A model generated the notes under the pieces. That model was not told the origin of the DNA, ran no database searches, and worked only from the letters and a program-made list of their open reading frames with translations. The translations under genes and the position numbers were made by a program. Of a DNA stretch of 64,000 bases, positions 12,158-31,470 are shown in pieces; position 1 is the stretch's first letter; each line of letters begins with the position of its first letter. Source of the stretch: an uncultured Verrucomicrobiae bacterium (GTDB lineage Bacteria; Verrucomicrobiota; Verrucomicrobiia; Chthoniobacterales; Terrimicrobiaceae); the NCBI GenBank assembly GCA_963763735.1, contig CAVXQK010000012.1, positions 14,803 through 78,802 of the forward strand, given 5' to 3'.

Positions 12158-12176
12158 CCCACCCCGAGGAATTCCC

Positions 12177-15100: not shown

Positions 15101-15794
15101 CAGCGCCTTCCAGCGCCAGATACCGGTGCCAGGCAGCGTCACGACGACGACCACGACCACGGCCGGCACTACCGTCGGGCTGGCCGCGAAGGTGCCGATC
15201 AAGAATCGTGCCGCGACGAGCAACCCGCTCCTTGCCTTTCTTGACGTGCTTGGAGGCTCGGCAGTCTGGATTTTCAACCTGGGAGTTTCGAATGAAATCT
15301 ACCTGCAGCTCTTCGGCCTGAGCGGGCTTTTCCTGCTGGACGATCTTCCGACCGAGGAAGCAGTCGAGGGGAACGACGACACGCGGCTTTTCGTGGGGGG
15401 CAACGTGCTCTTCAACGGCAACCAGGTCGTGTTCGACGCGCTCGGGCCGGTCGCGACCTTCAGCGTGAGCTCAGTCTTTCTTGGCAGCCTCGACGACGTC
15501 TCCCTGAATGCCAACCAGTGCGACTGCGACCTCGCGCAGGACGCGGTGATCACCAACGCCCTCACCTTCGGTTGGTCGCAACGCATGGCCGGGAACCGCT
15601 TCAAGGAAGGCCTGGTGAACGCCTTGCTCTCGGGCGTGTCGCTCGCGCCGATGAACACAACGACCGACAACCAGGGCACCCATTGCTTCTTCCCTGTCGG
15701 AAGGTTTGCGATCTCGCACATCGAGGGCAATCGCAGTCTCGTGCAACTCAACCCGGACACGCCCTGCCCGCGAAATGACTTCAAGCAGGGCTGA
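12177..15794 (+). CDS. DUF6519-like N-terminus plus right-handed parallel beta-helix protein (1205 aa); candidate tail fibre, receptor-binding or depolymerase protein
   Basis: ATG 12177 is preceded by GAGGA. 'FQPEKRYVGTFMQQGRVVTDEDLN' is DUF6519-like. Repeated 'N..I....GNNGITLG'-type beta-helix turns. Poly-Thr tract VTTTTTTTAGTT. Confidence 0.6.
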   Translation: MATPDISRQLFQPEKRYVGTFMQQGRVVTDEDLNAHRRLDAEDERLTFRDIICSKGSPNHGFRIGAPTPVNLNLDRSAYDFPVAHGSFYIGGLRFEALAGQPETFLTQRDWLQIDADPAALPTIPSVADLTNPNDGTTAERVDLVYLRGWEHCVSAVEDREVLEYALGGPDTSVFRRRQRRIEVLTDVGEDCTAASVDLIDSLTAPLPGDTSGDPHRFDEGSCELGSKGRLTVGFTGGPPSDDLCQPPVLGGYLGAENQAIRVQLTSTNRFIWGFDNAAPLYRVQVVEEQGLNVIQFLTLPRDEVAQPVAGQAVEILPWGALLPNQEKVGELQGHLTTVATSFDPDTARITIETPVPQAMVDWLNDPEHATFLNDRDEPAAQRFFYLRVWTGGSGDAAQPDHSYVPGTAVPLAGTGLEVTFSDFGLPGSYWVIAARPNTPDEVVPWILTDQAPAFGPRQFFASLALIRWSVDATGEGVVGKVQDCRSRFRPLCQIKGCCTIIVGDGSQSDGEFTSIQDAVDALPPAGGEICVLRGRYEEHVRVVNRANIRIRGCGPDTLVVGEGNAPVIEIVNSQRIEITTLAIEALDAPGIFCHAISERISRAGAVENIVLTWLRVLSRDHVSVAVLRGRFITLAYSEVRVAPGREGTLGQEPAVFLQGQDMRIEANRILAEGKRAALLGYGGLQIAGGSSRVEIRRNLIRGGNNNGITLGHTILRRVRIPNENDDFTVGVKSPGGARIFIDDKGCIVIDPFPPGQPPDGGEGTVLEAGPALRDIRIVDNRIEDMGRCGISVERFFDMEENPDFISVEDLLIEQNRITGCMRLEVGTIPFPLRDVIGFGGIALADVEYLVIRENLIVKNGSSSRDPICGVFVLHGAGIAIDGNRILHNGVTAATDDQLPRPGRRGGIVLAFARARADEELNVALGRLEFSGRRQDGVPAARIHDNIVVAQQGRALEILALGPVSVVANQLTAKGSAFQRQIPVPGSVTTTTTTTAGTTVGLAAKVPIKNRAATSNPLLAFLDVLGGSAVWIFNLGVSNEIYLQLFGLSGLFLLDDLPTEEAVEGNDDTRLFVGGNVLFNGNQVVFDALGPVATFSVSSVFLGSLDDVSLNANQCDCDLAQDAVITNALTFGWSQRMAGNRFKEGLVNALLSGVSLAPMNTTTDNQGTHCFFPVGRFAISHIEGNRSLVQLNPDTPCPRNDFKQG

Positions 15795-15820: not shown

Positions 15821-17311
15821 ATGGCCACCGAACGTATTCTCAACGACGACGAACTGAACGAGGAGATCGCGCAAATTCTCCCCGCCGCCGACCGCTTGCG
15901 ACTGGTCGCGCTCGACCGCACCCGGTCGCTCGCCGCGGCGAAAACGAAGAGCCTCCAGCGCGAGTTGCGGATCGTGCAGGTGCTCGCTCCAGACGACACC
16001 GCCAGCATTGCGGAGGCGGCGCGGCGAGTCGAGTCGCAGCAGCGATTCGAGAGCCTGGCGGCCGTCGAAATTCAACGCGGCGAGGTTGAGGCACCTGCGC
16101 GCAACCCAGCCGCTCTCGTTCTGTTCGGGCGGGTCGTCGACGGGAGGCGTATCGGGCAGGCCGGACTCGTCGTCAGCGCGACGGGTGCCGAAGGGCGCGC
16201 TCTCGTTTTCGGCTGCACGGATACGAACGGCAACTTTCGGCTCGACGTGCCGGCCAACCAACTCTCGAGTTCCAGCGCGCGGCCGGTCGTCACGTTACTC
16301 GTCAGCGATTCACAGCAGGCAATCCGGTACCGCGGCACCGAAGTCTTTCCGGTGGAAGGCAACAAGGTCATCTACCGAGAGATTGTTCTTGGAGACGAAC
16401 CCGGCAAGCCGACGCCCCAACCCCCACCGCCGGTATCCGAGCAAGTCCTCGTGCCCAACGTGGTTGGGGCGGAGCGCTCCACCGCGATCGCGGTGCTGAA
16501 ACGCACCGGTCTCCTGGCGGAGGAAAAAGCCGAGAAGGTCGATGACGACAAAGTGGGACTGGTCGTGGCGCAGGACCCGAAGCCCGGCACCTCGGCGCAA
16601 GCTGGCTCGGCGGTCGCGATTTCCGTCGGCATCGCCTCGGAAAGCGTTGTGGTTCCCGACGTGGTGGGTAGCGTTTTTGGCGAGGCCTCAGCCGCCCTCA
16701 AGCGAGTCCGGTTGTTGGTTGGCACGGTCGAACCGCCCAATCCCGGCGCCGATGCCCCCGTGCTCGACCAATCGCCAAAAGCCGGGTCTCAGGTCGCGCG
16801 CGGCTCGTTTGTGAACTTGAAACTCCAGCCGAAGGTCACCGAACTGCCGACGGTGGAAGTCCCCGATCTCACACGCCTGGCGCCGGACGAAGCCCGCGAA
16901 AAGCTCGAATCGCAGAAGTTGAAACTCGGCGTGGTTACGACCGCGCCAACGGCCGGCAACCAGGTCGGGCGCGTCCTCAGCCAAAATCCGAAAGCCGGGA
17001 GCCAGGTGGCCCCGCAAAGCGTGGTCGCAATCGTGATCGGCGAAAAGGAGGGTGACAGCCCGATACCGTCACGAACCGCCGCCGAGACGATCAAGCTCGT
17101 CGCCCGCGAGCCGGATTTCGAGAAGACCGGAGCCACCGAAGCGAAGCTGCTGCGAATCGCCGAAGAGCAGGGCCTGCAAAGCGAGAACGACCTGCAGAAA
17201 ATCGTCGACACCACCGAAGACGCCGAAGTGCGTGATCGCTTCAAATTGCGCAACCTCGACCAGGCCCGTGCCCTGAAGGAAATCCTGCTCCGCGTGATCA
17301 AACGTCGTTAA
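15821..17311 (+). CDS. PASTA-repeat protein (N-terminal coiled coil, carboxypeptidase-regulatory-like domain, 3 PASTA repeats), last gene of the structural operon
   Basis: Three repeats of the type 'VPNVVG...A...L...GL......V.....G.V..Q.P..G..V..GS.V.I'. 'GRVVDGRRIGQAGLVVSA...TDTNGNFRLDV'. Confidence 0.7.
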   Translation: MATERILNDDELNEEIAQILPAADRLRLVALDRTRSLAAAKTKSLQRELRIVQVLAPDDTASIAEAARRVESQQRFESLAAVEIQRGEVEAPARNPAALVLFGRVVDGRRIGQAGLVVSATGAEGRALVFGCTDTNGNFRLDVPANQLSSSSARPVVTLLVSDSQQAIRYRGTEVFPVEGNKVIYREIVLGDEPGKPTPQPPPPVSEQVLVPNVVGAERSTAIAVLKRTGLLAEEKAEKVDDDKVGLVVAQDPKPGTSAQAGSAVAISVGIASESVVVPDVVGSVFGEASAALKRVRLLVGTVEPPNPGADAPVLDQSPKAGSQVARGSFVNLKLQPKVTELPTVEVPDLTRLAPDEAREKLESQKLKLGVVTTAPTAGNQVGRVLSQNPKAGSQVAPQSVVAIVIGEKEGDSPIPSRTAAETIKLVAREPDFEKTGATEAKLLRIAEEQGLQSENDLQKIVDTTEDAEVRDRFKLRNLDQARALKEILLRVIKRR

Positions 17312-17506
17312 AGCGCGGAAGAATGGGCCCGGTAGCTGCTGAATTTCGCCGAATGGAGCGCGGCGGCAATCTCTTGGTCCCGCCACGTCGGCATCGATGG
17401 GGGGCCGCTTTGGTTAGGATTTTGGCCGGGTCCGGATTCACCGCGAGGCCCGGCGGCGGAGGCGGCAGCGACGGGGAAACTCAACACTCGAGATGCAACA
17501 GGTAGA

Positions 17507-19160
17507 ATGGAAATGCCAGCGTTGATCGCGCATCAAAGTAAGAGGAGGCCTGCGCAATCGCAGCACCCTCACGCAAGGTCCGCGGCAACCCGGGGAATGG
17601 TGCGGGCCGGCGTTTCTCTTGCGCCGTTCGTGCAGGCGAAACTTCGGGTTGGCACGCCGAACGACCGCTTCGAGCAGGAAGCCGATCGAGTCGCGGAGAG
17701 AGTTATGCGCATGCCGGATACCGCAAGTGCCCCGGCTCACCCGGCCGGTTATGCCGGGGACGCCGTACAGCGGAAATGCGCGGCCTGCGCCAGCGGGCAC
17801 GGGCTTTGCACCGAGTGCGCCGAAGAGGAGCGCCTCCAAACTAAACCTGTCGTGGGCGCGAGCAACAACGCCTTGGAACGAGGAGCGGATCGGGTCGCCA
17901 ATTCAGCGAATGCCACGCCATCCACCGTCGTCGGCGGGATGCCACTGTCCCTCCCGGGATTTTCCGAAGGATCGATCAAGCAGACGAATTCGGCTTTAGC
18001 CGGCGTGGAGCGGACGTTAGCCGGTGCCGGTCGACCTTTGGATCCGCCGCTCAGGCGGGACATGGAGAGGCGCTTCGGCCATGACTTTTCCCCGGTCCGG
18101 GTGTATTTCGGCGGCATTGCTGGACAATCAGCCAGAGACTTGAATGCCGACGCCTACACGGTTGGGCAAAGCATTGTGTTTGGTGTTGATCCGCCCGCGC
18201 TGGAATCGACTGGCGGGCGAAAGCTGCTCGCGCACGAGTTGACGCATGTGGTGCAGCAAACGAAGGCATCCGCGCCGTCGATCGTGCAGCGCCAGGCAGG
18301 CGGAGGCGGACCCGCAGGCGGGCCTCCTGCGGCCGGAGCCCCGTCGTTGTCGGTGAAATACAAGGGTTGTGGAAAGGCGCCGTTCACCCAGCCGGTGGTC
18401 GAGGCGGCTGCTCTCGCGGCATACAATAAGGTCGTCGGCAGCAATTGCATAAAAAGCACGGAGCTACGGGACGAGATATTGAGCGAATTCGCCGACCTGA
18501 CGATCGATTGCGAGCAGGGGAGCGGCAGTTCGCCCTGCGGCATGGCCTGGCGGTTCCTAAGCCACACGGTGAACATCTATCCCAAGGCGCTGGCCGGCGG
18601 CAGTTGCGGGCCTTTGGAATCGACCATCCTGCACGAAGTCGTGCACCTTACGGAATTGCGGCTCATCGAGCACGGCGATCTGGCAGACGCCTGCGAAGCT
18701 TCGTGTTTTGGCTGGGGGAGCGGTGACCCGGCGAAGTGCGACGAAAAGACGCTCGTGCTCCATGGACCTCGCGTTGCCCTGGGTGCGAGCCTGGCCGGCG
18801 GCCGTGGTCCTTTCGGCCGGATCGGCTATGAGGTTCTCAGGAGCTGGACGGGAACCGCGTTTTCTCTGGGCCTTCATTTGGATGTGCCGCTGACCGACCG
18901 CGACTCATTTGTGCGAGCGGGGCTCGAGGTAGGGTCGAACTTCCAGCTCCTCGGTTCCCTCTACGGCAGGCTGTACGGCGGCTTGTCGGTGCCCTTGCCG
19001 CCTGGCGGTGCTTTGCCCGACACAACGGTTGGCGCTGGTCTCGGCTTCGATTTTGGCCGAACGCAGCTGGAAGTTCTTTACGAAGTGCTGAACGTTCAGT
19101 CCAGGGACGTGCGGACCCAACAAGCTCCTGGTTGGGCTGGGCTTTCGATTCGGAAAATAA
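17507..19160 (+). CDS. DUF4157 (eCIS core domain) protein 1 with a second HExxH module; 3' end probably frameshifted
   Basis: 'VQAKLRVGTPNDRFEQEADRVAERVM', 'RRDMERRFGHDFSPVRVY', 'LLAHELTHVVQQ', second 'ILHEVVHLTE'. The frame-2 ORF runs to 19360. However, frame 3 from about 19110 gives 'NKLLVGLGFRFGK*' (stop 19158-19160), similar to the protein-5 terminus. An alternative start is ATG 17597. Confidence 0.75.
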
Positions 19161-19202
19161 CTGACGGTTCCCTCGTACGAACCCCAAGGAGGCAGGCATC
19201 GA

Positions 19203-21117
19203 ATGAAGCTTGGCATCTGTCCGCATCGCGCGCCGCGCGAAGCCTCCATGCGCCCGCGATCTCGCAAAGCGGAATCGCCCGGCCGCCGCGCCGCAGGATC
19301 GTCGTCCAGCGCCTTGCATCCCGTCATCCAAGCCAGATTGAGGACGCGCCTTCCGAGTGATTGTGAACGGGAGTCGGATCGGTTTTCTCAAGATGGGAGG
19401 CGCCCGACAGACCCGGGCCTGCGACGGCCCCGCTCCTCCGGCGGAGAGTGCGCGAGGAGTCGAAACGAGGGCAGGGAGCACGTCGGGCCCGTCCCCGACG
19501 GCAAGGCCGCGAACTGGCCGAAGAGGCGCTGGCTGCCGAGCGGATCGAAGAAGTCAACGGGCAGGTGGAATTCGGAATCAGGAAAGTTGCGGGCGGCATG
19601 CCCATGCAGAAATCCGCACGGGTTATTTTCGAGCCACGCTTCGGTCGCGACTTCAGCCACGTGCGCCTCCACACGAACCCCGCCGCGATATCTCTTGCAC
19701 GGGCGCTTCGCGCCGCGGCCTTTACCTGCGGCTCCGATATTTTCTTCAATGCCGGAGAGTACGCGCCCAACAGCGTGGCCGGCCGGGGATTGCTCGCGCA
19801 CGAGCTGGCGCACACGATTCAGCAAGCGACCGGAGATGTGCGCGTCCAGCGGGCAATCATCCCCTACCGGCCAATCACCTGGGCCGACTTTCTGGCTGCT
19901 CCTCCGGCCGGTCAGAACCCGGCCGAGGGCGCCGGAATTCTTTCCAGATTCGACCTGATTCCGTCCTACACCCCGGTGATCACAGCCAAGCCAACGAAAA
20001 AGCCGTGCCGCGCGGGCCGGATTCGCGCCGAGGAAGTTGAAGCGACCGCCGCGCCCGATCCCGCCGATTTCAACAAGCCCGAGGCGGTCATGGATCAGGA
20101 CCAGTCGTGGGCGCTGCCGCGCTACACGGGCAACGGCAACGACTTTTGCGCGAGCGAGGTGACCCGGTGCGAAAACCAGTTCGACAGCGTCCGGGCCTCG
20201 GTGCGGACAAATTGCGAGCGGAGCGCCAGCGGAATGCGAGCAAGCTTTCGATCGGGGAGAAAAGGCCTTTGGGATCGCCCTTGGCCGCGATTCCGTTCGG
20301 GTGACCCGCAAAGCCGATTGCCGAACCACGTTTCTGACAAGGTGCCAGGAGATAACTTCCAAGGCGGCAACGGTGTCGATCGGCTCAACCATCGTCCGAA
20401 CGAAGGAGGATTGCCAGCGTACCTACTTTCGCCAATGTCTGACGAGCGAGGTCACGAGCGGGCACGCCTTTTGAGGCATGAGCAGGGACATTTCGACATC
20501 ACCAACGTCATGGCACGAAATGCCCGGGAGAGCATCAAACTAAAGGCTGCGGGTCTGTCGGTGAAGGAAACGGGCTGCGGTGAGGACGCCGCCCGCGACG
20601 CCGCCAGAGGAACCTACGACAGCACTGTGAAGTCGGTGCTGCGACAGTTGAGCAATGATTGGCTGGCCGCCAAGGATCGGGCGCAACAGGACTATGACGG
20701 CCAAACCATGCACAGCTCGAACGCGGCCAAACAACGGGCTTGGGAGACGGACATTGCGGCTGGATTAAAGGCTTACGTCCCTGCGAATGCTCCCGTCCCC
20801 GCGGCGGCACCGGCCCCAGCCGCCGGGAAGTCGTCCGGCCGCGCCGACTCCGGCCAACCCTCCGGCGAATCCTCCGCCGGTCGCGGCTCCGAAGCGCCCG
20901 GGAGAGCCGCGGTGACTTATCGGCCTCGTTCGATGTCACTTTGCTCTTCTCGAATCGTCCGACTTCCCTCCCGCCACCCGGCGACTCGAAGCAATTCGTG
21001 GCGCTCCCGATCCACGTTGAGCGGATAGTCCGAGTCATGAAACTGGCCTCGCTCCAGGAGTCGAAAGTGAAAGCGATAAATGGTGGGAAACACTGCAAGC
21101 GGACGACCGGGGCGTGA
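19203..21117 (+). pseudogene. DUF4157 (eCIS core domain) protein 2, disrupted by several frame changes; DUF922-like HEQGH module
   Basis: AAGGAGG lies 10 nt upstream of ATG 19203. The leader 'HPVIQARLRTRLPSDCERESDR' is in frame 3. The core 'FEPRFGRDFSHVRLH...LLAHELAHTIQQ' is in frame 2. The segment 'CEQAFDRGEKAFGIALGRDSVRVTRKADCRTTFLTRCQEI...' (about 20235-20470) is in frame 3. 'LLRHEQGHFDI' is back in frame 2. The tail is in frame 1. Confidence 0.65.
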
Positions 21118-21144
21118 TGCGTCGGAAAATTCAAGCGTTGCAAA

Positions 21145-21438
21145 ATGCAAACGCCGGTCACCGTCAATCAGACACCGGCAAGCCCGCTGCGAAATATTGA
21201 AGCCACGCGATTTTCCGCGATGAAGGCGATCGGCCTGGGCACCTCGTTCTCGTTCCCCCTGGGCGAAGGAAAATTCCTGACCATCGGGCACATGCTCTAC
21301 CTGCCGGGCACGGGCAATACGCCTGTCCGGACGGACCTCCTTTTGCCGCCTTACGTATCGGATCGGGACGAGAAAGTGCGCCTGGTTTCCGGGTTCCAAT
21401 TCAGCGGTTCGTTTGACGAGACCAAGTGGTTCAAATGA
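21145..21438 (+). CDS. hypothetical 97-aa protein (or former C-terminal part of DUF4157 protein 2)
   Basis: Strong G/C preference at third codon positions and non-biased amino-acid composition. It is in the same frame as the 20930-21117 coding-like segment, separated by a single TGA. Confidence 0.45.
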   Translation: MQTPVTVNQTPASPLRNIEATRFSAMKAIGLGTSFSFPLGEGKFLTIGHMLYLPGTGNTPVRTDLLLPPYVSDRDEKVRLVSGFQFSGSFDETKWFK

Positions 21439-21595
21439 ACTAGTCCTGGCCATCGCATTGATCCAAATCGCGCCACTCGAATCCGCTCGCCGTCTGAGCC
21501 CCTTTCCGCAATGAAATGCGTGCCGCTGCAAAACCGTAAGCCCCGCTTCCCGCTGTCCACCTCGAACCGCACGCACTCGCGAGCCGCCGCGTTCG

Positions 21596-23221
21596 ATGGC
21601 TCCGTCCGCGCTCTCGCATCCGATCATCCAGGCCAGGCTCCGCGTCGGCGCTCCGAATGATCGCTTCGAGCAGGAGGCCGATCGTGTTGCGGAGAGAGTC
21701 ATGCGCATGCCGGATACCGAAAGCGCGCCAGCTCTCCCGGCCGGTATCGCGGACGACGCCGTGCAGCGGAAATGCGCGGCCTGCTCCAGCGGCGGGCACC
21801 TCTGCCCGGAGTGCGCGGAGGAGGAGGAGAAAGTGCGTCGGAAGCCGGGCGACCATCAATTGCTTCAGGCCAGAGAATCGCCGGGAGCCGTGCCGCGACT
21901 GAGCCGCGGAGTCGAAGCCAGGATTCGTGGATTTCAGGGAGGTGGCCGGCCTTTACCGCAGGGCGAACGAGCCTTTTTCGAGCCGCGTCTGGGGGCGGAT
22001 TTTTCGCAGGTTCGCATCCACACCAATACGCCGGCTGCCGAGACCGCCGCCGCGATTCAGGCGCGAGCCTTCACGACAGGCTCGGACATTGTCTTCGGGG
22101 CGGGTGAATATCAGGGGGAGCCGACTTCCCGCAGCCGGGAATTGCTGGCGCATGAACTTGTCCACGTCGTCCAGCAGGGAGCCGCGCGCGGCGGAGCCTC
22201 CCCGGGGGTGATCCAGCGCAGGAAGCCGCCCGCTGCGGTTCCCACGCAGCTTGTCTCCCCAATCCTGGCCGGAGATGCGATCCTCGAGGATGTGATAAAC
22301 GATCGATCCGTTCTCCGGCAGGGGAGCAAGGGAGACGCGGTTCGCCGTGTGCAGGAGGCTCTCCTGAGCGAGGGTTATCCGCTGCCGAAATTCGGCGCCG
22401 ACGGCATTTTCGGACCCGAGACGGCGAAGGCGGTGCGCATGTTCCAGCAGCGATGGCGGCTCGACGTGGACGGTATCGTTGGCGATCAGACTTTGGGGCT
22501 GCTGGACAGCCATCTCTTCAACAAGGGCGTGCTCCAGTTTGGAGAAGAACGGGGCGGTCTCATCGGCGGCATTGCCAAGCGACTCGCCACCGCCGGGCTG
22601 GACATCAGGGAGGCCGACTTTGCGAGAACCGACTGTCCCGCGGCCAACAAGGCGGAGCGGCTCACCGCGTGCATCCAGCCGGTGGTCATCGCCGAGGACG
22701 ACGGCTCGAATCCCACCGCGTCGCCCCCGTTCGAGGTGGCTCAGCGCATCTGGGAGAAATGCTGCATCAACTACTCCGTGCTTCCCACTCAAACGGTGAA
22801 CAAGTCGGACTTCAAGGTGCTCGACGAATCTCCGAACAACATACCCACGGCCGAGGAGACTGCTCTGTTTACGGCGGCAGGAGCGAGCCGGTGCATCCAG
22901 GTGTTCGTGCCGGAGACCTTCGAGCAGGGCGGCGTCATCAGCAAGGCGATCTCAGGTGGCGGCGCAACGTACGACGGTGGCGCCGCCAACGCCAAGGTCG
23001 TAGTGGTGGAGGGCACGGTGTCGGAAGTCGTCGCACACGAGCTCGGGCACGCCACCGGTTTCGGCGGGCACGATGGAAACCCGACTGTCATGAAGCCGAC
23101 CGGCGCCCATAACGTACCGAATTCCACTGCCGTCTCCAAGGACGTTTGCACACGCGCCCGCACCGGCGGGACTCTGGCCACAACCGGCGGAACCGCCGAT
23201 TGCTGCATGGATCCACGCTAA
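21596..23221 (+). CDS. DUF4157 (eCIS core domain) protein 3 with peptidoglycan-binding domain and C-terminal metzincin-like HExxH module
   Basis: 'IIQARLRVGAPNDRFEQEADRVAERVM', 'FFEPRLGADFSQVRIH', 'LLAHELVHVVQQ'. PG_binding_1-like 'GSKGDAVRRVQEALLSEGYPLPKFGADGIFGPETAKAVRMFQQRWRLDVDGIVGDQT'. 'VVAHELGHATGFGGHDGNPTVMKP'. Confidence 0.8.
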   Translation: MAPSALSHPIIQARLRVGAPNDRFEQEADRVAERVMRMPDTESAPALPAGIADDAVQRKCAACSSGGHLCPECAEEEEKVRRKPGDHQLLQARESPGAVPRLSRGVEARIRGFQGGGRPLPQGERAFFEPRLGADFSQVRIHTNTPAAETAAAIQARAFTTGSDIVFGAGEYQGEPTSRSRELLAHELVHVVQQGAARGGASPGVIQRRKPPAAVPTQLVSPILAGDAILEDVINDRSVLRQGSKGDAVRRVQEALLSEGYPLPKFGADGIFGPETAKAVRMFQQRWRLDVDGIVGDQTLGLLDSHLFNKGVLQFGEERGGLIGGIAKRLATAGLDIREADFARTDCPAANKAERLTACIQPVVIAEDDGSNPTASPPFEVAQRIWEKCCINYSVLPTQTVNKSDFKVLDESPNNIPTAEETALFTAAGASRCIQVFVPETFEQGGVISKAISGGGATYDGGAANAKVVVVEGTVSEVVAHELGHATGFGGHDGNPTVMKPTGAHNVPNSTAVSKDVCTRARTGGTLATTGGTADCCMDPR

Positions 23222-23339
23222 AGGCGATCGCCGGAGTCGTCGCGCCGCGCCACCCCTTGCGTTGCTTCGTCGGCTTGCCGCCCCCGATTTGTTACCATCG
23301 CCGGAGCGGCCCACTTCGAGGCGCGCCATTGAACGTGCC

Positions 23340-26300
23340 ATGCCCGTTACCCACGCCCGCGTCCTGAGAGTGGACGCCCGTTCGCCAACGCGGCCGGGTC
23401 GACAGCGCGCCCCGGCCAGTCACGAACGGAACGAGTCGCTTCATCCGGTCGTCCGGGCGAAACTTCGCGTCGGCGCGCGGAACGACCCTTACGAGCAGGA
23501 AGCCGATCGTGTGGCCGGCGAGGTGATGCGGAGGCCGGATGCTTCGAAGAACGCGGCGGCCGACTCCTGTCCCGTGCAGGCGGATCCGGGCGCCGACCGC
23601 CCCCTAACGGAACTGGGTGAGGATCTTGCCTCTTCCCAAAACCAGCGTCTGGACCCCACCACCCGGACATTCATGGAATCCCGCTTCGGCCACGACTTCG
23701 GCCGGGTGCGGCTGCATGCGGACGAAAGCGCCGCCGCGGCGGCGCGCAGCCTGCATGCCCGGGCGTTTGCGGTGGGGCGGGATATTTTCTTCGGTGCCGG
23801 CCAGCACGCGACGGAACGTGCCGATGGGCGGCGGTTGCTCGCTCACGAGTTGACGCACGTGCTGCAGCAGACCGGGCGCCTCGGGCGCCCGGCGATGGCG
23901 CCACGAGCCATTCAGCGCCAGCCGGTTGAGGAGGCACCCCCAGCGGCCGAGGAGGAGCAGGAGTCGTCGGAAGAGATTGACGAGGAGGCCGGATCCACAA
24001 ACGAAATCGAGGCGCTCGCGGCCGACGCCCTGGCCGTCGGGCGCCAGAATGCCCCCGAAGTGCTCGCGAAAATTGCCGCCTTCAATCCGCTCCCGGAGGC
24101 GGTTGCCCGGCTAGACGGGGACGATGACGCCCTCGGACATCTCCTGAAGGTGCTCGGACCCGACGCCTGGCGGCCGGAGAACCGCAAAAGCCTGCTTGCC
24201 ATCCTGCCGTTGCGTACCGCCAAGCGCAACGTCGAGGCCATCCAGAACGAGGTCGACACGGGCCTGCTCAAACTCGACTTAGGCGTGAGCGCGGACGAGG
24301 CGCACCTGGCCTACGAAGTTTTCAAGGCCATGAGTGAAGCCGATCGCGCGCGGTTCCTGCAGACTCCCGAAGGACGGCAGGCATTTGAAAAGGTGGGCGA
24401 AAGAGCCAGCTCGGAGCTCCGGATCTCGCGGGAGTTCGGGTTCTACGATGCCGATGTCGAGGCCCTCCTGGCCGAGCTCGAAAAGCTGGAAACCTGGAGC
24501 GAAGACCAGCGGGGCTGGTTGCGCACGGTCTTGGCGATGATTGTTCAGGGCGGTCACGCCGGAGACCCGCGCGTGGTGCAATTCGTCCGGCACAATTGGG
24601 AGCTCGATCCGGAGTTTTTCGCCGGGCTGGGATTTACCGGGCAGGGAGAAATCACCCCCGAAGAATTGCACGATACGCCGAATCCCCGCTGGCTCGGGTG
24701 GTTCACGAAGGTTGGCTTGACGGGCCTCTGGGCCGACGCCCCTGGAACCATCCAACTCGGCCTGCAATTCGTGGGAGGCAAACGAAGCCACGTCGAGGGC
24801 GTGCCTGTGGCCAGTCTGCCGTTGGGTTCTTTGCTTCGCGGCCTCGGGGGATCGCTGTCCGGCATCGACCTCGAGGAGATTCCTGGCATCGAGGATTCGG
24901 GTCTCGCCACTGTCTCGATCGATAAGCGGGAAGGCTTGTTCATTCTGGACGTCACGGCGGCCGCGATTCCAACGGTCGATCTGACGGGAAAAGGGGAAGC
25001 GGGCGCGACGCTCACGGTGACCGCGATGAACGGCAGCTTCGGCGATCTTCATGTCGAGGCGCGCTGGCCCGCCGAGGAGAATCCGACCCAACTCCCCGAT
25101 TTGCGGGTGCGGGTCGGCTGGCTCGGCCTGAGCACCGTCGTTCTTTCTTCCGGAAATCTGCTCGTCGGAGCGGATCACCTCCGGTTGCAGAATCTGGAGT
25201 TCGACGCCTCCCTCTCCGCCGCAAGCGAAAACGGCCGGTTCCGGATGAAGCAGTTCGTCGGAAATCTTCAAAGCCAGCTCGCCGCGGTCATTTCCGTCGT
25301 CCAGAGCGCGCTTTTCGCCGTGGTGACGACCGGATTGGGGCAGCAGCAATCGCCCGACGAAACTGAGGTGCGCGATGCCGCCTGGTTTACGAACGTGTTG
25401 CGCGAAACAATGGCGACCGAGTTCGACGACGCCCTTCTGAGTCACCTGAGCGTAGGGTCGCTGGCCGCCGAGAATGTCGTTTTCGCCAGTGGCGAGTCTC
25501 TTGACCGGGTCGCAACCTCCCTCGATCTGACCATTGCGGCCGGTCCCCGGGCGCTGGCGAGCCTCGAGATGGCCCGGATCGAAGAGGGGGCGGCGGATCG
25601 CGACCTCACTCCAGAGGAAAAAATGAGGTTGGACGAACTGATGCGGGTCGAGGCGTCCGATCCGACGGAGGCTCGCGAGCGCATCGCAGCGATGGGCATG
25701 GATCCGGATGCCGTGGAGTTGCGCCTTAAACTGGACAGCCCGGACAGCGAAGAGGCGCTCTCGGTTGCCGGCATGAACATACCGGGCGTGGTGCAGTCCC
25801 CGGGCACGATTTCCCCGGACCGGGCCACGATCGAGCTTCGGTTTCCGGGAGAGAGCGTTCAGATTCCACCCGGCGCCGATTCGGATGATCAGGGACGCAT
25901 CCTGTTCACCCTGGAGCTCGATGCGCCCGGCACGCTCCAGACGTCGCGCGATCTCGGGGTCGCCGGTCTGCCGCCGCTTGGCCCGATCACGGTTGAAGGC
26001 GCGACGGGCGAAGCCATCGTCCGCGAAGGCGGCGTCGTGAGCCTCGAGGTTGTCCTGCCGAGGGTGGGTTTTGAAGGCGTGCGCTCGGCGATCACGGTCG
26101 ACGCGCAGGAAGGCGTCGCGCAGGGCGTCCACCTTGTCGCCGACCTGGTAATGGACCCGACTCGCCGGCTCGGAATCCTGCAAATTGACAATTGTGCCGT
26201 CTTTGTCGAAGCCGTGACGGCGAAGGAGGTCGTCGTGGAGCGCCCAGGGGCATGGAGCGTGCAGGTTTTCGATCCTGTTCTCAACGGGCTGAAGCTCACG

Positions 26301-28733
26301 GCGGGACTCATCGACGGGAAGCTGGTGGCAGAGACGCTGCACGTCGGCCCCGGTCAGGTCTCCGGACTCGAGGCCTCACTCGGGACCTTGCTCAAGGCGA
26401 GTTCCCGGGAGACGTTGAGCTTCGGGGCCATCGATATCGAGGAGATCGTGCCCTACAAGAGACACGGGTTTACGATCTCGGACCTGGATGCGAATCAGGT
26501 GCGGGTGGAGGCCGGCGACCAGTCCGTTCGCGTCGTGCGCTTCGACAGCAAGGAAGTCGAAGGCGAGCTGGGGCTCGATCTCGAGACCGGAGAGTTCCAG
26601 GGCGGCGAGCTTTCGATCGCGGGCGGAAGCATGGATCTCGGCGCTCTCGATTTCGATTTCCCGTGGGGCGGAGTCACTGCCCGATCCGCGACCCTGCCGT
26701 CGTTCTCGGCTACCGCCAGGGCCACTGTCGAGAATCTGGGGGCGGGCGACGCGACCGAGTCGCTCGGTGTCACCATCGAGGCGGTCGATGCGCCGGTGGT
26801 CGCAGCGGAGGGCATCGGCTTCGAGATCCCGACCGTGGGTGTTCGCGGTCGGTTGGACAGCCAGCCGGGTATTCTCGAGGGGCTGGCGATTCGCGACGTC
26901 GGCCTGACCCTGGACGCGAAGGGCATCACGACGAAGGGTGGAACGGTCACTGCCGACCGCACGCGATTGACGGAACTCGAGACGTGGGTGCGGGATGTCG
27001 CCTTTGCGCGAACCTCGGCGAGCACTGGAAAACTGAGCTTCCAATTTTTCTCCGACGGCACCGGCGGACAGTTTCGGGTCGAGGATCTGGAAGTCGATTC
27101 GAACGGCTGGGTGCAGGTGAAGAACGGTCAGAGGGGAGCCTTCGTGCTGGAGGCCTTCACGGCCGACGCTGTCGAGGGCGCCGTCACGAAAACGGGTGTC
27201 GAGGCGAATGTTCCCGCCGGAAGCCTCGATCTTGGTCCACTCGACTTCACATATGCCGGGGTCCACGTGAAATGCACCGGTGCCTCGGCGCCCGACGTCC
27301 TGCTGAAGGTGCGAGCGGCGGCGGGCAAGGCGCCCTCCGGCGGCGCGACTCCGTTGCAGATCACCCTCGAGCAAGCGGAGGCGCCGCTTGTGCATGTCGA
27401 GGGACTGGAATTTGATCTCCTGAGGCTCGGCGTGCATGGGTCGCTGCTGGATCATCCTGGCGTGCTCGAAGGCGTGACCCTCGCCGGGATCGAGGCGGTG
27501 CTCACGCCGCAGGGCTTCACTCTCGAAGACGGAACCGTGACGATCAATCACACCCAGGCCGGCGGCGCGAAAGTGCAGGTGGCGAATCTGCTGTCCGGAA
27601 GGGCCAGCGCAGGCACGGGCGCCGTGACAGTCCAGTTCTTCAGCGACCAGCAGGTAAAGTTTGGCGCCAAGGACATTACCGTGGAGGCAGATGGAAATGT
27701 GACGATTGCGACCGGCAATCCAGGCAGGTTCGTGCTCGTTGCGGGATCTGTCCGGACGATCGAAGGCGAACTGAGTCCGGAAGGTATCGAGGGGAGCGCG
27801 CGGGGAATCCTGCTGGGGCCCGGCACCTATGACGACGGCAACCTGCAGATCAACTTTCAGATTATGAAGGTCGACGCCGCGTTTTCGAAGGGAGCACTTG
27901 CCCTGGACGCTTATCGTCTCCTTTCCCCGCCACTCCTCGCGGCAATGGAAGCCAGAGGCATCGGCACCCTTCTTGGAATCGACCTCGAGTCGGCTACGAT
28001 TCTCATTCGAGACGTGTGGTCGCTGCCAGGGGCCGGCAACCCCTTGGATCCGAGCCGCCTGGAAGGTTTCAAGGCGCTCGCCCGGGGTGCGAGCGGCGAA
28101 CTCTCCGGCAGGGTCGTCACCGACGAGGATGCGGCTTACGCCAATCTCGAAGCGACCGTGACGGACGGCCTGGCCAGCGGCCGGCTTTTCGACACGTTCT
28201 TTTCGTCTCCGATTCCAGCTCCGGATCCCATTCCCTTTCAGTGGGACCTTGTGACCCTGCTCGACTCGGCGACGTTGGGAAAAGCCTTCGCGGATAAATT
28301 GAGTGGAAGGGTCGCTCCGCAACCGGCCGGCGCCCCGAGCATGGCGGAAGTCCTGTTGGTGCGCGTGCTGCAGAAGACCGAGTTTCGGGACATCAACGGC
28401 CATCTGGAAGTGCGGCTCGAGACCATTCCCATCGGGACGCTCGGCTACCTGCGCGCGGCCCGGCAGAATGCGCCTCAGGTGTCATTGGTTCTTTCCGGAA
28501 ACACGGCGAGAGATCTCCAGGCCGGCTTCTCCCTCGGCGCGCTCAGCCTCGATACCGTGGTGTGGAATTTGTTTGTGTCCTCCGCGCAAGGGGTGGTGAT
28601 CGATCAGGGGCAGGTTCGGGTCACTTTCGACGGCCTCATCCCGCGAAGCGTCAGCGGCACCATCCAAAAGGGGCACATCGACGCGCTGAAGCTCTTCGGG
28701 CCGCCGCAGGCAGCCACCGCGGGCGGGCACTAG
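23340..28733 (+). CDS. giant DUF4157 (eCIS core domain) protein 4 (about 1800 aa) with repeat-rich C-terminal region of unknown function
   Basis: 'VVRAKLRVGARNDPYEQEADRVAGEVM', 'FMESRFGHDFGRVRLH', 'LLAHELTHVLQQ'. A single uninterrupted ORF (the longest version starts at 23262). Contains internal repeats of about 195 aa. Confidence 0.8.
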   Translation: MPVTHARVLRVDARSPTRPGRQRAPASHERNESLHPVVRAKLRVGARNDPYEQEADRVAGEVMRRPDASKNAAADSCPVQADPGADRPLTELGEDLASSQNQRLDPTTRTFMESRFGHDFGRVRLHADESAAAAARSLHARAFAVGRDIFFGAGQHATERADGRRLLAHELTHVLQQTGRLGRPAMAPRAIQRQPVEEAPPAAEEEQESSEEIDEEAGSTNEIEALAADALAVGRQNAPEVLAKIAAFNPLPEAVARLDGDDDALGHLLKVLGPDAWRPENRKSLLAILPLRTAKRNVEAIQNEVDTGLLKLDLGVSADEAHLAYEVFKAMSEADRARFLQTPEGRQAFEKVGERASSELRISREFGFYDADVEALLAELEKLETWSEDQRGWLRTVLAMIVQGGHAGDPRVVQFVRHNWELDPEFFAGLGFTGQGEITPEELHDTPNPRWLGWFTKVGLTGLWADAPGTIQLGLQFVGGKRSHVEGVPVASLPLGSLLRGLGGSLSGIDLEEIPGIEDSGLATVSIDKREGLFILDVTAAAIPTVDLTGKGEAGATLTVTAMNGSFGDLHVEARWPAEENPTQLPDLRVRVGWLGLSTVVLSSGNLLVGADHLRLQNLEFDASLSAASENGRFRMKQFVGNLQSQLAAVISVVQSALFAVVTTGLGQQQSPDETEVRDAAWFTNVLRETMATEFDDALLSHLSVGSLAAENVVFASGESLDRVATSLDLTIAAGPRALASLEMARIEEGAADRDLTPEEKMRLDELMRVEASDPTEARERIAAMGMDPDAVELRLKLDSPDSEEALSVAGMNIPGVVQSPGTISPDRATIELRFPGESVQIPPGADSDDQGRILFTLELDAPGTLQTSRDLGVAGLPPLGPITVEGATGEAIVREGGVVSLEVVLPRVGFEGVRSAITVDAQEGVAQGVHLVADLVMDPTRRLGILQIDNCAVFVEAVTAKEVVVERPGAWSVQVFDPVLNGLKLTAGLIDGKLVAETLHVGPGQVSGLEASLGTLLKASSRETLSFGAIDIEEIVPYKRHGFTISDLDANQVRVEAGDQSVRVVRFDSKEVEGELGLDLETGEFQGGELSIAGGSMDLGALDFDFPWGGVTARSATLPSFSATARATVENLGAGDATESLGVTIEAVDAPVVAAEGIGFEIPTVGVRGRLDSQPGILEGLAIRDVGLTLDAKGITTKGGTVTADRTRLTELETWVRDVAFARTSASTGKLSFQFFSDGTGGQFRVEDLEVDSNGWVQVKNGQRGAFVLEAFTADAVEGAVTKTGVEANVPAGSLDLGPLDFTYAGVHVKCTGASAPDVLLKVRAAAGKAPSGGATPLQITLEQAEAPLVHVEGLEFDLLRLGVHGSLLDHPGVLEGVTLAGIEAVLTPQGFTLEDGTVTINHTQAGGAKVQVANLLSGRASAGTGAVTVQFFSDQQVKFGAKDITVEADGNVTIATGNPGRFVLVAGSVRTIEGELSPEGIEGSARGILLGPGTYDDGNLQINFQIMKVDAAFSKGALALDAYRLLSPPLLAAMEARGIGTLLGIDLESATILIRDVWSLPGAGNPLDPSRLEGFKALARGASGELSGRVVTDEDAAYANLEATVTDGLASGRLFDTFFSSPIPAPDPIPFQWDLVTLLDSATLGKAFADKLSGRVAPQPAGAPSMAEVLLVRVLQKTEFRDINGHLEVRLETIPIGTLGYLRAARQNAPQVSLVLSGNTARDLQAGFSLGALSLDTVVWNLFVSSAQGVVIDQGQVRVTFDGLIPRSVSGTIQKGHIDALKLFGPPQAATAGGH
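26040..27850 (+). repeat. protein-level tandem repeats (about 590 nt / 195 aa per unit, at least two clear units, probably three to four) inside DUF4157 protein 4
   Basis: Anchor motifs 'MDLGALDFDFPWGGV' (about 26630) and 'LDLGPLDFTYAGVHV' (about 27225). Parallel segments 'EAVDAPVVAAEGIGFEIPTVGVRGRLDSQPGILEGLAIRDVGL' and 'EQAEAPLVHVEGLEFDLLRLGVHGSLLDHPGVLEGVTLAGIEA'. Confidence 0.6.
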
Positions 28734-28748
28734 CAAAATGCGTGGCGC

Positions 28749-29786
28749 GTGATTAGTTTCAAGAAGATCATGTCCCTAGCCCAACTTCAAAAATCAAAGA
28801 GACCGGGAAGGAATTCGGGGCGGATTCCAGCCAGTCCCATCCGGCGCGCCCCCGGGCAAAACGCGTCGATTGCGCCGGTAATCCAAGCCAGGCTGCGCAT
28901 AGGCGCTCCCCATGACCGTTTCGAGCAGGAGGCGAATCGGGTCGGCCGCGCTGTCGTGGCTGCACCGCGTCCCACCGGGGCGCATCGCTCGGGCCTCGCC
29001 GACAGTCCGCGGACCCTGCCGGGTGAGATGCCCGGGGCTTCGGTCGGAGCGGGGATGGACTTCGAGAAGCTCTGCGGTCATGGCCAGCCGCTGGCGCAGC
29101 CTTTGCGCGGATTCTTCGAGTCGCGGTTCGGTCGCGACTTCGGCCATGTCCGCATCCACGCGGACGCACAGGCGGCCGGGCTGGCCGAGTCAGTGAGAGC
29201 GAGAGCGCTTGCAATTGGACGGGATGTTGTCTTTGGCGCGGGAGAGTTCGCGCCCGGCACGAGTCGCGGGCGGGAACTGGTGGCGCACGAACTGACTCAC
29301 GTCGTGCAACAGGAGGGAGGGGCGGCGCAATCCCAGCCCGGCACCATTCAACGGCAGCCGAAGACGGACACGGCGCCTCCGGTGTTCCCCGATTTTCCGA
29401 ATTTCGCGTTGAAGCTTGAAGACGACATTGGGCAAAACCTGTTCGATTACGGGCACCAGTTTTACCGCCTGGCGACCCTCTTTCCCGATCAACCGGAACT
29501 GCTGCAGCAAGCCTTTGGCCGCTATGCGCTGGGCAAAAACGTGCTCGACACCGGTTTCCGTTTCCTGGGTCTCGATGAGAGCACTGCGAGCCGTCTTGCC
29601 CTTGGAACGGGCATCCTTTTCAAGGGACTGAATTTCGTGAAGGACGGCGAAATCGTACTCGATTTTCAGTTCGACATTGGCCGTGGACTGAAGCTCGAGA
29701 CCAGCCTTGACCTAGGAGTGAACCCCCAGGATCGCAATCAGGTGCGAAAGGCAGAGGCTGGAATCGGCATCGTCGGACGCTTTTGA
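28749..29786 (+). CDS. DUF4157 (eCIS core domain) protein 5 (short, about 340 aa)
   Basis: 'VIQARLRIGAPHDRFEQEANRV', 'FFESRFGRDFGHVRIH', 'LVAHELTHVVQQ'. Alternative ATG start at 28770. Confidence 0.8.
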   Translation: MISFKKIMSLAQLQKSKRPGRNSGRIPASPIRRAPGQNASIAPVIQARLRIGAPHDRFEQEANRVGRAVVAAPRPTGAHRSGLADSPRTLPGEMPGASVGAGMDFEKLCGHGQPLAQPLRGFFESRFGRDFGHVRIHADAQAAGLAESVRARALAIGRDVVFGAGEFAPGTSRGRELVAHELTHVVQQEGGAAQSQPGTIQRQPKTDTAPPVFPDFPNFALKLEDDIGQNLFDYGHQFYRLATLFPDQPELLQQAFGRYALGKNVLDTGFRFLGLDESTASRLALGTGILFKGLNFVKDGEIVLDFQFDIGRGLKLETSLDLGVNPQDRNQVRKAEAGIGIVGRF

Positions 29787-29917
29787 AAAGCTTGATACAG
29801 CCTCCTCTCCGACGCCGGGGCCTCGCTTCGATGGCGCGCGCCTGCGGAAGCTGAGCGGCATCCTGCGCGTTGGGGATGTGACAACCAGTGAATCCAAGGG
29901 AGAGTGTCACAAAATTG

Positions 29918-31219
29918 CTATATTTTGCTTAGCCGAGCTATGAGACCCTTTTGCACGGAAGAATGAATCTCTTCGGGAAATCCGGCGGGAAGCTGCTTTA
30001 CCACTGCCTTTAACGCCGTTTCTACGTCCCTCGCAATTTCCTCTAACGCGTTCTGCGCAATGGCGGCCGGCAAGCCGGCTCGCTCAACATTCTGCACGAA
30101 ATGCCGTCCCTGAATGGACTCCATCGTGTAGTGCCGGCTATTTCCCGCCGACATTGCCAGCTTCATTTGCTTTTTGACGATGTGGTGAGCGTCAAGGCTG
30201 GGCTGCGCCGTGAGAACATCATAAAGCGGCGTCATGTTGAAGCGTCCGCCCGGACCGAGAAAGATGCTGAAGTTCTTGGCGTGGCCGTCGGTCGCGCCGA
30301 TCAGCCAATAGAGAATTTGCGCCTTCAAAAAATTCTTCTGGTCGTCAGCGGGGGTATCGCTGCCTTTTAGGAGAGTGAGAATATCCACCATTCCTGGCCC
30401 GCCCTCGGTTTGATATTTTCGGGTCGGCGGCGTGGAAAGCGCCTGGCAGCAATCTTCCTGGGGAACGCGGAGCAACCGTCCATCCTTTGTCCATGTCCGG
30501 TCAAAGCGCTCGATCACGAGAGCTTTCGTCTTTCCAAAAATGTGGATGCCGGCGGCGTTTACGGGCGGCCCGAAAGCCGCCATGAGCTTTAGGCAATAGT
30601 ATTCATTTTCAACGCTGTTCGAAAGGTCGATGCCGTTCGGAAGAGTGCCGATTTGCGTCTTGAAAATGTGGGTTGTCGGCGTCGTCCCGTGAGGCTTCCA
30701 CCATTTATCTTTATGGAACAGGAGCGCTGTCTTTTCCTGCGCCCCGGCAACGGAAATGCGGAACTCCTGGTCTCGATCAAGACCCAAGGGGGCTTGGGCT
30801 AGGTTCTGGAGAAGCTTCTCAATGTCTTCTTCACTGACGGCCTGACCCTCAATGCTCGAAGTATCATAAACGGCATCGTCGTCATCGGGAATGAATTGCA
30901 AAGCGCCGACGCAGTCGCGCCCGATCCGGGATAACAGACTGTAAGAATCTGTTCCATCAGCGGCAACTTTCTCGGCGACCCGCCGCCGGAGCGCTTCGGA
31001 ATCGGGCAACAGGTTCTCGAAGACAGCAATGACGGGTGCGCCTTTATAAGCATCTTCCCGCAGCGGAAGGGAAAGCGACACGGGGATCGCCCGTTCCCAT
31101 GCGAGCCAGCTTACATCATAGCGAAAATCAATCCCGCCACCGGTCTCTTTCGAGAGGTGTCCGACGGGGCGATTATTGAGGAGGACGCGCAGGGGCGCGT
31201 ATTGGCGTTTGCGGGCCAT
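29918..31219 (-). CDS. hipA: HipA-family serine/threonine kinase toxin
   Basis: 433 aa. N-terminal 'LRVLLNNRPVGHL...IDFRYD' coupling domain. Catalytic loop 'GATDGHAKNFSIFL'. Its start overlaps the hipB stop. Confidence 0.9.
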   Translation of the reverse strand: MARKRQYAPLRVLLNNRPVGHLSKETGGGIDFRYDVSWLAWERAIPVSLSLPLREDAYKGAPVIAVFENLLPDSEALRRRVAEKVAADGTDSYSLLSRIGRDCVGALQFIPDDDDAVYDTSSIEGQAVSEEDIEKLLQNLAQAPLGLDRDQEFRISVAGAQEKTALLFHKDKWWKPHGTTPTTHIFKTQIGTLPNGIDLSNSVENEYYCLKLMAAFGPPVNAAGIHIFGKTKALVIERFDRTWTKDGRLLRVPQEDCCQALSTPPTRKYQTEGGPGMVDILTLLKGSDTPADDQKNFLKAQILYWLIGATDGHAKNFSIFLGPGGRFNMTPLYDVLTAQPSLDAHHIVKKQMKLAMSAGNSRHYTMESIQGRHFVQNVERAGLPAAIAQNALEEIARDVETALKAVVKQLPAGFPEEIHSSVQKGLIARLSKI

Positions 31220-31470
31220 CAGAAGTCACTTTCTATGTCACGGCCCCAGCCTTTCGAGCGGGGAGCAATCTGAAACTCCAGATCAAGGGCGGAGAGGACA
31301 GCCAGCAGGGTCTCAATCCTGGTCGCCGAATTGCCGGTCTCAATCAAGGAAATGGTTTCCTGGCGCAGGCCGACCTTGTCGCCGAGCTGCTGCTGGCTGA
31401 GGGAGTGTCGCTTGCGGGCACGCCGGACGAGGGCGCCAATTTGCCTGGGATCGCGGGCCGGATCATTCAT
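31219..31470 (-). CDS. hipB: HipB-type XRE-family HTH antitoxin
   Basis: 'IGALVRRARKRHSLSQQQLGDKVGLRQETISLIETGN' HTH. ATG at 31470 (the longest ORF starts at 31548). Translationally coupled to hipA. Confidence 0.85.
   Translation of the reverse strand: MNDPARDPRQIGALVRRARKRHSLSQQQLGDKVGLRQETISLIETGNSATRIETLLAVLSALDLEFQIAPRSKGWGRDIESDF

Follow-up and report, generated by a model that had tools for sequence, protein, structure and literature searches.

Introduction

DUF4157 is a core domain and marker of extracellular contractile injection systems (eCIS), where it forms the N-terminal head of putative toxins, whose toxin domain sometimes follows only after more than 1,000 amino acids (aa), and 983 of 1,130 predicted DUF4157 effectors have no other annotated domain. 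The domain also occurs in some effectors of type VI secretion systems (T6SS). In AlgoCIS, the system of Algoriphagus machipongonensis, two DUF4157 proteins, Cgo1 (498 aa) and Cgo2 (1,228 aa, 134 kDa), are loaded in the inner-tube lumen, and both consist of a disordered N-terminus, DUF4157 and an ordered C-terminal domain; their loading needs the N-terminal domain, not DUF4157, and is mediated by an AAA+ protein. Another DUF4157 protein associated with a contractile injection system (CIS), the 2,247-aa Tme of Streptomyces davawensis (BN159_7576), is related to tape measures, co-purifies with the tip, spike and tube initiator, and is encoded immediately upstream of baseplate genes; about 70% of it is disordered, and it has several predicted transmembrane helices, coiled coils and an EndA-type nuclease at its C-terminus. 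Genes termed tme-like, set by how long the open reading frame (ORF) is, an N-terminal DUF4157 and synteny, have been reported from CIS clusters across distant phyla (Nagakubo 2024). Here we describe a gene for a giant DUF4157-headed protein at 23340-28733 of a 64,000-nucleotide stretch (the window) from an uncultured Verrucomicrobiae bacterium (GenBank assembly GCA_963763735.1, contig CAVXQK010000012.1, positions 14,803 to 78,802), and we argue, at a probability of about 0.62, that its product is a cargo (effector) of the adjoining CIS and belongs to the known DUF4157-headed class.

Results

A real gene with one recognisable domain

A single frame on the plus strand is open from 23262 to 28733, with the first ATG at 23340 and a stop codon that ends at 28733. 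Its product of 1,797 aa (189.9 kDa, isoelectric point (pI) 4.7 from the translation) is intact, in agreement with an earlier note made from the letters of the window, which had reported an uninterrupted ORF of about 1,800 aa. The GC content by codon position (0.71/0.47/0.77) is the same as that of the adjoining genes, and intact full-length homologues are known at 99, 77, 38, 33, 29 and 22% identity; therefore, the ORF is a real gene and not a chance frame. No obvious Shine-Dalgarno sequence precedes the ATG.

Pfam assigned PF13699 (eCIS_core, that is, DUF4157) to aa 104-179 with 99.7 bits against a gathering cut-off of 22 (E 1e-28), covering positions 2-77 of the 79 in the profile. This head carries the HExxH motif as HELTH (aa 169-173), in which H169, E170 and H173 are invariant across six family members, and is followed by an acidic linker with EEAPPAAEEEQESSEEIDEEAG at about aa 196-217; the head and linker named in the earlier note are both present. 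PF13699 is the sole Pfam domain of the whole protein above threshold. Five overlapping segments scanned with Pfam at E<=10 returned only sub-threshold noise, the NCBIfam scan gave no match, the PHROGs search nothing better than E 0.085, and PDB chain sequences searched with the body, as a single sequence and as family profiles, no significant match. About 1,580 aa of body is thus left unmatched in Pfam, NCBIfam, PHROGs and PDB sequences, which bears out the earlier remark that no known toxin or enzyme motif could be recognised. Two candidates for the body were rejected as falling below every threshold, the Tse3 N-terminal domain (Pfam E 0.14, PDB E 1.8) and Cas3_C (E 0.005), and a TamB/AsmA-like beta-taco suspected by eye found no supporting Pfam match at E<=10.

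Layout and position of the giant point to a probable cargo

The chain runs from a basic, disordered-looking N-terminus through DUF4157 and an acidic, disordered-looking linker into a large, folded-looking body. Under a charge-hydropathy heuristic, a simple disorder call, 14 of the 15 scored windows in aa 1-103 resembled intrinsically disordered proteins (IDP-like), as did aa 181-240 (net charge -11, pI 4.1), while only 9 of 153 did so in aa 221-1797. The motif VVRAKLRVGARNDPYEQEADRVAGEVM in the N-terminal region is common to the giant and three of its four sister DUF4157 proteins in the window according to protein alignment, while their bodies are unrelated, a combination that we count in favour of cargo; the sharing is also visible in the DNA as repeat family D1 (23436-23540 in the giant). 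Among 69 DUF4157 ORFs from related loci, 39 have a motif ExEA[DNE] upstream of the head.

The genomic position agrees with this layout. The giant is the fourth of five consecutive same-strand DUF4157 genes (17507-29786) at the 3' end of a CIS cluster, directly after the fibre and PASTA genes, and thus lies on the same strand at the 3' end of a CIS operon, the place typical of eCIS-associated toxins (EATs). Close strains differ in how many DUF4157 genes they carry (3, 5 and at least 7), a variation that cargo cassettes would be expected to show.

By analogy with Cgo1 and Cgo2 and with the Photorhabdus virulence cassette (PVC), the N-terminal region of about 100 aa would serve as a loading signal that directs the chain to the AAA+ loader. 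The AAA+ ATPase of the cluster could use this signal and thread the largely unfolded chain into the inner-tube lumen, and sheath contraction would then expel it, either into or onto the target, and the body would refold and act there. The HExxH module of DUF4157 would be an accessory, possibly chaperoning or processing. With almost no Cys, few aromatic residues and an acidic, beta-rich make-up, the body would suit unfolded travel through a narrow channel.

Compatible with the cargo explanation is a processed polyprotein, also raised in the earlier note, in which the HExxH head or a host protease would cut at the acidic linker, and perhaps between modules, to release functional pieces. An intact and invariant HExxH, a disordered-looking linker right after it and a modular body of several segments with a tandem duplication would all suit such a scheme, and 'cargo processing' is among the possible DUF4157 roles in the literature. 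However, neither a cleavage motif nor a conserved junction was identified, Cgo1 has been reported to inhibit growth independently of the metalloprotease motifs, and AlgoCIS loading does not require DUF4157, so that we consider self-processing improbable.

Size precedent and the Tme-like alternative

The earlier note held the protein to be far larger than a tail-tube lumen can accommodate, a view that our comparison contradicts. Cgo2 is found in the lumen at 1,228 aa, PVC has been shown to package one of more than 1,100 aa, and Tme reaches 2,247 aa. We estimate that 190 kDa occupies about 230 nm3, and that a lumen with a width of about 4 nm and a length of 100-120 nm offers roughly 1,300-1,500 nm3. 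Since cargos and CIS effectors of 1,100-2,250 aa are published and the lumen volume is ample for an unfolded chain, size is no bar to a cargo; volume would not be limiting if the chain were loaded unfolded, as proposed for AlgoCIS.

Large DUF4157 ORFs are present elsewhere as well. We gathered 80 related CIS loci (L010-L089) from genomes with the tube initiator as query. The 69 DUF4157 ORFs in these loci have a median length of 601 aa; eight are at least 1,000 aa long and two at least 1,797 aa, and large examples are those of L072 (about 2,470 aa), L066 (2,063 aa) and L084 (1,689 aa). Three of five of the largest ORFs scanned with Pfam have no domain beyond the head. These other giants resemble that of the window in head, CIS clade, size and bodies largely without Pfam domains, but their bodies differ in sequence from it and from one another: among the 13 largest ORFs the bodies are unrelated to that of the window giant and mutually, and the heads alone align. 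In at least 30 of the 80 loci, from many phyla and including archaeal metagenome-assembled genomes (MAGs), the tube-initiator gene is immediately preceded by one to four DUF4157 ORFs (371-2,475 aa). Because one to four ORFs of varied size stand there, we take this slot as a general DUF4157 cargo slot and not as the seat of one ruler gene. In the window and in its closest verrucomicrobial relatives the slot has no DUF4157 gene, and the array is at the 3' end instead.

This slot bears on the possibility that the giant is a Tme-like, tape-measure-related lumen protein, whose N-terminus would bind the complex of spike and tube initiator and which would line the lumen during assembly, possibly help to set its length, and be ejected first, as has been proposed for Tme. 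Two of the three published criteria apply to the giant: no ORF of its cluster is longer than its 1,797 aa (the next in the window has 1,223 aa and the sheath 812 aa), and DUF4157 stands at its N-terminus; a homologue, P0005, 38% identical over the whole body, shows all three, lying exactly between an ATPase/89-aa gene pair and the tube-initiator, spike and baseplate genes (L004-L006), with flanking genes homologous to and colinear with those of the window. Moreover, lengths in the family vary through module duplications, and no long tape-measure-like gene is recognisable in the cluster, including the upstream part seen on contig L009. The window giant itself departs from the tme-like synteny, standing at the 3' end instead of upstream of baseplate genes: the ATPase gene ends at 1050 and the tube-initiator gene starts at 1308, a gap of just 257 bp, and the giant lies about 21 kb downstream. 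It matches no phage tape-measure family in PHROGs or Pfam, its body is folded-looking and beta-rich, against the disorder, coiled coils and transmembrane helices of Tme, its one hydrophobic stretch is not hydrophobic in homologues, and no EndA-type nuclease stands at its C-terminus. Together with the general use of the tube-initiator slot and the existence of an orphan copy (P0004, see below), these differences make a Tme-like role rather unlikely for the window protein.

A modular body without an assignable fold

The body is acidic throughout, nearly without Cys and Tyr, and low in aromatic residues. Low-confidence AlphaFold2 models and hydrophobic periodicity agree on a helical part at aa 221-450, followed by a mainly beta region with a few helices. 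The helical part is the best conserved of the body and carries the motif VQ[GS]GHA[DG]DPRV..FV.HNW; the predicted local distance difference test (pLDDT) reached 70-83 only here, at about aa 221-300. Helical inserts were modelled in the middle region at about aa 636-665 and 736-784, again at low confidence. This region also holds a hydrophobic stretch at aa 648-666, which we rejected as a transmembrane helix given that the equivalent stretch is not hydrophobic in homologues. Two tandem modules, R1 and R2, share 35-37% identity in self-BLAST (E 1e-21) and aligned in hhalign with a probability of 99.9%; no second copy of this module was seen in the homologue P0004. A profile-profile comparison of nine body segments related R1 and R2 only, and we dropped the idea of a beta region made up entirely of one repeated unit. 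The last ~100 aa are conserved family-wide (..VxVxFDGLxPxxVxGxIxxGxIDxxxxFG).

Structure prediction in segments followed by Foldseek, the check proposed in the earlier note, was carried out and assigned no fold. The AlphaFold2 models of aa 221-1090 (4 sequences) and aa 1040-1797 (a 3-sequence alignment) had pLDDT values of 43.9 and 30.9 and give rough secondary structure at most, the low confidence being due to too small an alignment depth; for the former, the best Foldseek match in the PDB had E 0.06 and a TM-score below 0.15, which is not meaningful. An alignment of six members contains 79 invariant body positions, of which 24 are Gly, 20 Leu and a few scattered polar residues, and no clustered polar or catalytic-looking motif was found among them. 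Speculatively, the body is a non-enzymatic, beta-rich, acidic and modular protein that binds or perturbs membrane or wall at the bacterial envelope, and not a cytoplasmic enzyme. Envelope action is our best guess, at low confidence, because the invariant residues look structural, the homologue P0013 ends in an OmpA-like domain, a sister gene encodes PG_binding_1, and a PASTA protein is encoded in the same cluster.

The same make-up could suggest an external structural part, such as a fibre, a decoration or a surface adhesin, or a cell-envelope protein of the producer. Large size, beta-rich composition, few Cys and aromatic residues and internal repeats are typical of fibres and adhesins, and the OmpA-like domain of P0013 could be read in the same way. 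However, Pfam found no fibre, eBAP or adhesin domain in the giant (among eBAP1-5, only DUF6519 has a Pfam model), and the cluster already has a DUF6519/eBAP5 beta-helix fibre as a separate gene (12123-15794). The N-terminus is of the cargo type common to the small sister proteins, and it has no Sec-type hydrophobic segment in its first 100 aa, the most hydrophobic 19-aa stretches all lying beyond aa 480. The earlier note had left the choice between cargo and surface or fibre component open and had named homology to a structural tail-fibre family as the outcome that would overturn its view; our Pfam scans looked for such homology and the giant matched no fibre family. Of the three roles raised in that note, cargo is the best supported, and an external part appears very unlikely.

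The body family is very rare

Word-indexed searches covering 5.8 billion proteins returned only four matches, namely P0001 from a 99%-identical strain, P0002 (77%), P0003 (a frameshifted fragment) and P0004 (36% identity). An exhaustive HMMER profile search with aa 598-1797 against 1.84 billion representatives yielded just 23 matches at E<=1e-3. It added the full-length members P0005 (1,801 aa), P0009 (1,674 aa) and P0013 (1,791 aa), while the shorter, low-scoring P0019, P0021, P0022, P0024, P0025 and P0026 look like fragments of family members and P0020 proved on inspection to be an unrelated repeat protein. Pattern scans with the family alignment found no member in GTDB (185,579 species genomes) or in JGI metagenomes, and tblastn found none in plasmid and phage collections. 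The body family is therefore very rare. Every full-length member bears a DUF4157 head, and none has a further Pfam domain except P0013, which ends in an OmpA-like peptidoglycan-binding domain scored at 26.9 bits, just under the Pfam cut-off of 27.2, and which duplicates another internal module than the window giant does.

Four of the five members whose loci were examined sit in CIS clusters (L002, L003, L004-L006 and L007). In L002, the 99% strain, the giant again stands last but one among the DUF4157 genes that precede hipBA, in an array of at least seven such genes (L002:1-16447). In L003 (7166-15331), the DUF4157 genes called are one sister, a head-bearing 5' piece of a fragmented giant and the small final gene; the giant there has at least six frame changes. 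We rejected the reading of this copy as a pseudogene: since the fibre gene, a single one of 1,223 aa in the window, has a homologue there that is likewise called as two genes, indels of the assembly probably account for the frame changes. In L007 (P0013, 8597-13972), no DUF4157 gene other than the giant was called after the DUF6519 fibre.

DUF4157 genes number five in the window, at least seven in L002 and three in L003; all three close strains have the giant and the small terminal gene. The array genes have 5' DNA repeat modules in common (D1-D7), yet their bodies differ. This pattern looks like cassette turnover.

Evidence against a cargo role

Several observations weigh against a cargo role for the giant. 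The fifth examined member, P0004 (1,559 aa; L001:9970-14649), is an orphan: genes for succinate dehydrogenase, an ammonium transporter and a sigma factor surround it, no CIS gene lies within 10 kb, and its N-terminal region is missing; the body can thus exist outside a cargo context. Compared with the 99%-identical strain, the ratio of non-synonymous to synonymous substitution rates (dN/dS) is 0.445 (18 synonymous and 23 non-synonymous differences), just mildly below 1. No immunity gene is evident adjoining the giant. An envelope target is a low-confidence proposal drawn from circumstantial domain associations, among them the OmpA-like match that falls just short of its cut-off. With models of such low pLDDT and a void Foldseek search, no activity appears assignable to the body, and loading, expression and toxicity of the giant are predicted.

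Part of this evidence could also indicate a decaying gene, a large remnant no longer expressed or used. The very rare homologues, the dN/dS value (from few changes), the broken copy in L003 and the lack of an obvious Shine-Dalgarno sequence are in line with decay. Yet the 5.4-kb frame is intact in lineages down to 22% identity, with conserved blocks along its full length, its codon-position GC is that of neighbouring genes, and the L003 frameshifts are probably indels of an assembly in which the fibre gene is split too. We accordingly give decay very little credence and prefer a functional cargo.

The surrounding cluster

Judged by its gene content (Table 1), the cluster is a genuine and complete CIS. 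Contig L009, which encodes an identical tube-initiator protein, shows which genes precede those of the window, namely a sigma-54 activator, a NusG-like gene, the sheath (812 aa), the tube, three small genes, a Pvc16-type cap and the ATPase. Between tube and cap (L009:4557-6249) there are only ORFs of 257, 199 and 67 aa, none with a significant Pfam match. A conserved gene of 86-89 aa lies between ATPase and tube initiator (L009:9748-10008), or between ATPase and giant in L004. The tube initiator of the window is 92-94% identical to those of Chthoniobacterales MAGs, which makes Verrucomicrobiota the probable source of the window on this evidence as well. As DUF6519 has been defined as the tail-fibre baseplate-attachment domain eBAP5, the cluster owns its own fibre.

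Table 1. Features of the giant, its domains and the adjoining injection-system genes (positions in the window)
Feature	Position	Strand	Basis
Giant DUF4157-headed gene, complete	23340-28733	+	ORF and translation; coding-type GC by codon position; full-length homologues
N-terminal region, aa 1-103, basic, disordered-looking, putative loading sequence	23340-23648	+	Alignment, DNA repeat D1, charge-hydropathy, Cgo1/Cgo2 analogy
eCIS_core/DUF4157 domain, aa 104-180	23649-23879	+	Pfam PF13699; HExxH at 23844-23858
Acidic Pro/Glu/Ala-rich linker, aa 181-220, disordered-looking	23880-23999	+	Translation, charge, charge-hydropathy plot
Conserved alpha-helical domain, aa 221-450	24000-24689	+	Family alignments; helical in AlphaFold2
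Middle region, aa 451-1089, mainly beta	24690-26606	+	Low-confidence AlphaFold2, hydropathy, period-2 hydrophobic signal
Repeat module R1, aa 1090-1286	26607-27197	+	Self-BLAST, module HMM, hhalign
Repeat module R2, aa 1287-1485, tandem duplicate of R1	27198-27794	+	Self-BLAST, alignment, module HMM, hhalign
C-terminal region, aa 1486-1797	27795-28730	+	Family alignments; fragments P0022, P0024, P0025 share this end
AAA+ ATPase, cut by the window edge	4-1050	+	Family scans
Tube initiator, CIS_tube type	1308-2006	+	Family scans
Hub (GPD)	2298-3458	+	Family scans
Spike, OB domain	3459-4169	+	Family scans
Baseplate, Baseplate_J/TIGR02243	6450-9988	+	Family scans
Tail fibre, DUF6519 (eBAP5) and beta-helix, 1,223 aa	12123-15794	+	Pfam
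496-aa protein, three PASTA repeats	15821-17311	+	Pfam
First DUF4157 gene	17507-19360	+	Pfam
Second DUF4157 gene	19448-21028	+	Pfam
Third DUF4157 gene, with PG_binding_1	21596-23221	+	Pfam
Fifth DUF4157 gene, the last of the array, 345 aa, beginning 15 bp past the giant	28749-29786	+	Pfam; kept after the giant in L002 and L003

PASTA is a peptidoglycan/muropeptide-binding module, and the protein carrying it is encoded between the fibre and the cargo array. The paper cataloguing eCIS receptor-binding domains does not mention PASTA in its main text. Possibly the protein is an accessory with which the particle binds the wall; if so, it would hint that bacteria are the targets. Past the PASTA gene but ahead of the first DUF4157 gene, at 17396-17441, we found a DUF4157-like DNA remnant (..RFG*DFGRVRIH..) with an in-frame TAG, probably the relic of a lost cargo gene. 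A Cys-rich motif (e.g. QRKCAACASGxxLCxECA) is present between the N-terminal motif and DUF4157 in the first and third DUF4157 genes, and similar Cys clusters stand N-terminal of DUF4157 in P0005, P0009 and P0013; the window giant is without it. It could be a zinc-knuckle-like element.

The last DUF4157 gene is followed by a hipA gene on the minus strand (29918-31219), beside which L002 has a helix-turn-helix (hipB-like) gene. Past this point (from about 29800-31300 on), housekeeping genes take over and the GC content is about 59%, down from about 64%. The island thus appears to end here, which suggests horizontal acquisition of the cluster.

Discussion

The giant is a large member of the known and heterogeneous DUF4157-headed class of eCIS cargos, with a body from a very rare family. 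DUF4157-headed proteins form the largest predicted class of eCIS cargo, mostly without known activity, and the giant illustrates how far in size this class reaches. On present evidence, however, both the type of gene and its place are as one would expect. A bolder reading, which we consider unlikely, is that the body represents a novel injected giant that fills much of the lumen, acting either as a Tme-like assembly factor or ruler in a cluster with no recognisable tape measure, or as an envelope-spanning or wall-binding antibacterial effector, its family having moved between the baseplate-proximal slot, 3' arrays and orphan loci. A rare and well-delimited body family such as this could serve to study the loading of very large cargos and the role of non-enzymatic ones, and a natural cargo of 190 kDa would bear on the payload limit of particles for engineering.

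Comparison with known systems

The only solved structure with any similarity to the giant is the C-terminal metallopeptidase domain of Pseudomonas aeruginosa VgrG2b (PDB 6H56), through a profile match to the DUF4157 head alone that is not significant (E 0.21); VgrG2b is a T6SS spike fusion, unlike the giant. EATs with DUF4157 as their sole annotated domain (Geller 2021; Danov 2024) are like the giant in their 3'-end location, N-terminal head and lack of another Pfam domain; the giant is far longer than is typical (the median of the sampled ORFs being about a third of its length), and no terminal toxin domain is detectable in it. Set beside the description of Tme, the giant is likewise very long, the largest ORF of its cluster and headed by DUF4157, but it differs in having no tape-measure homology, no predominant disorder, a single non-conserved hydrophobic 19-mer by hydropathy, and no nuclease.

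Afp18 of the Serratia entomophila antifeeding prophage offers another precedent, being a toxin of very large size that the particle delivers and whose gene stands at the 3' end of an eCIS cluster. It is about 2,360 aa long, has recognisable toxin domains and targets insects; to our knowledge, it has no DUF4157 head. Cgo1 and Cgo2 share with the giant the tripartite layout and the setting, in which DUF4157 cargos are encoded as sisters in an eCIS cluster with an AAA+ loader, here as read from the genes, and Cgo2 is itself large. The giant is about 570 aa longer than Cgo2 and comes from a different CIS lineage, probably of Verrucomicrobiota, and its likeness to Cgo2 lies in the described layout of a disordered N-terminus, DUF4157 and an ordered C-terminal part.

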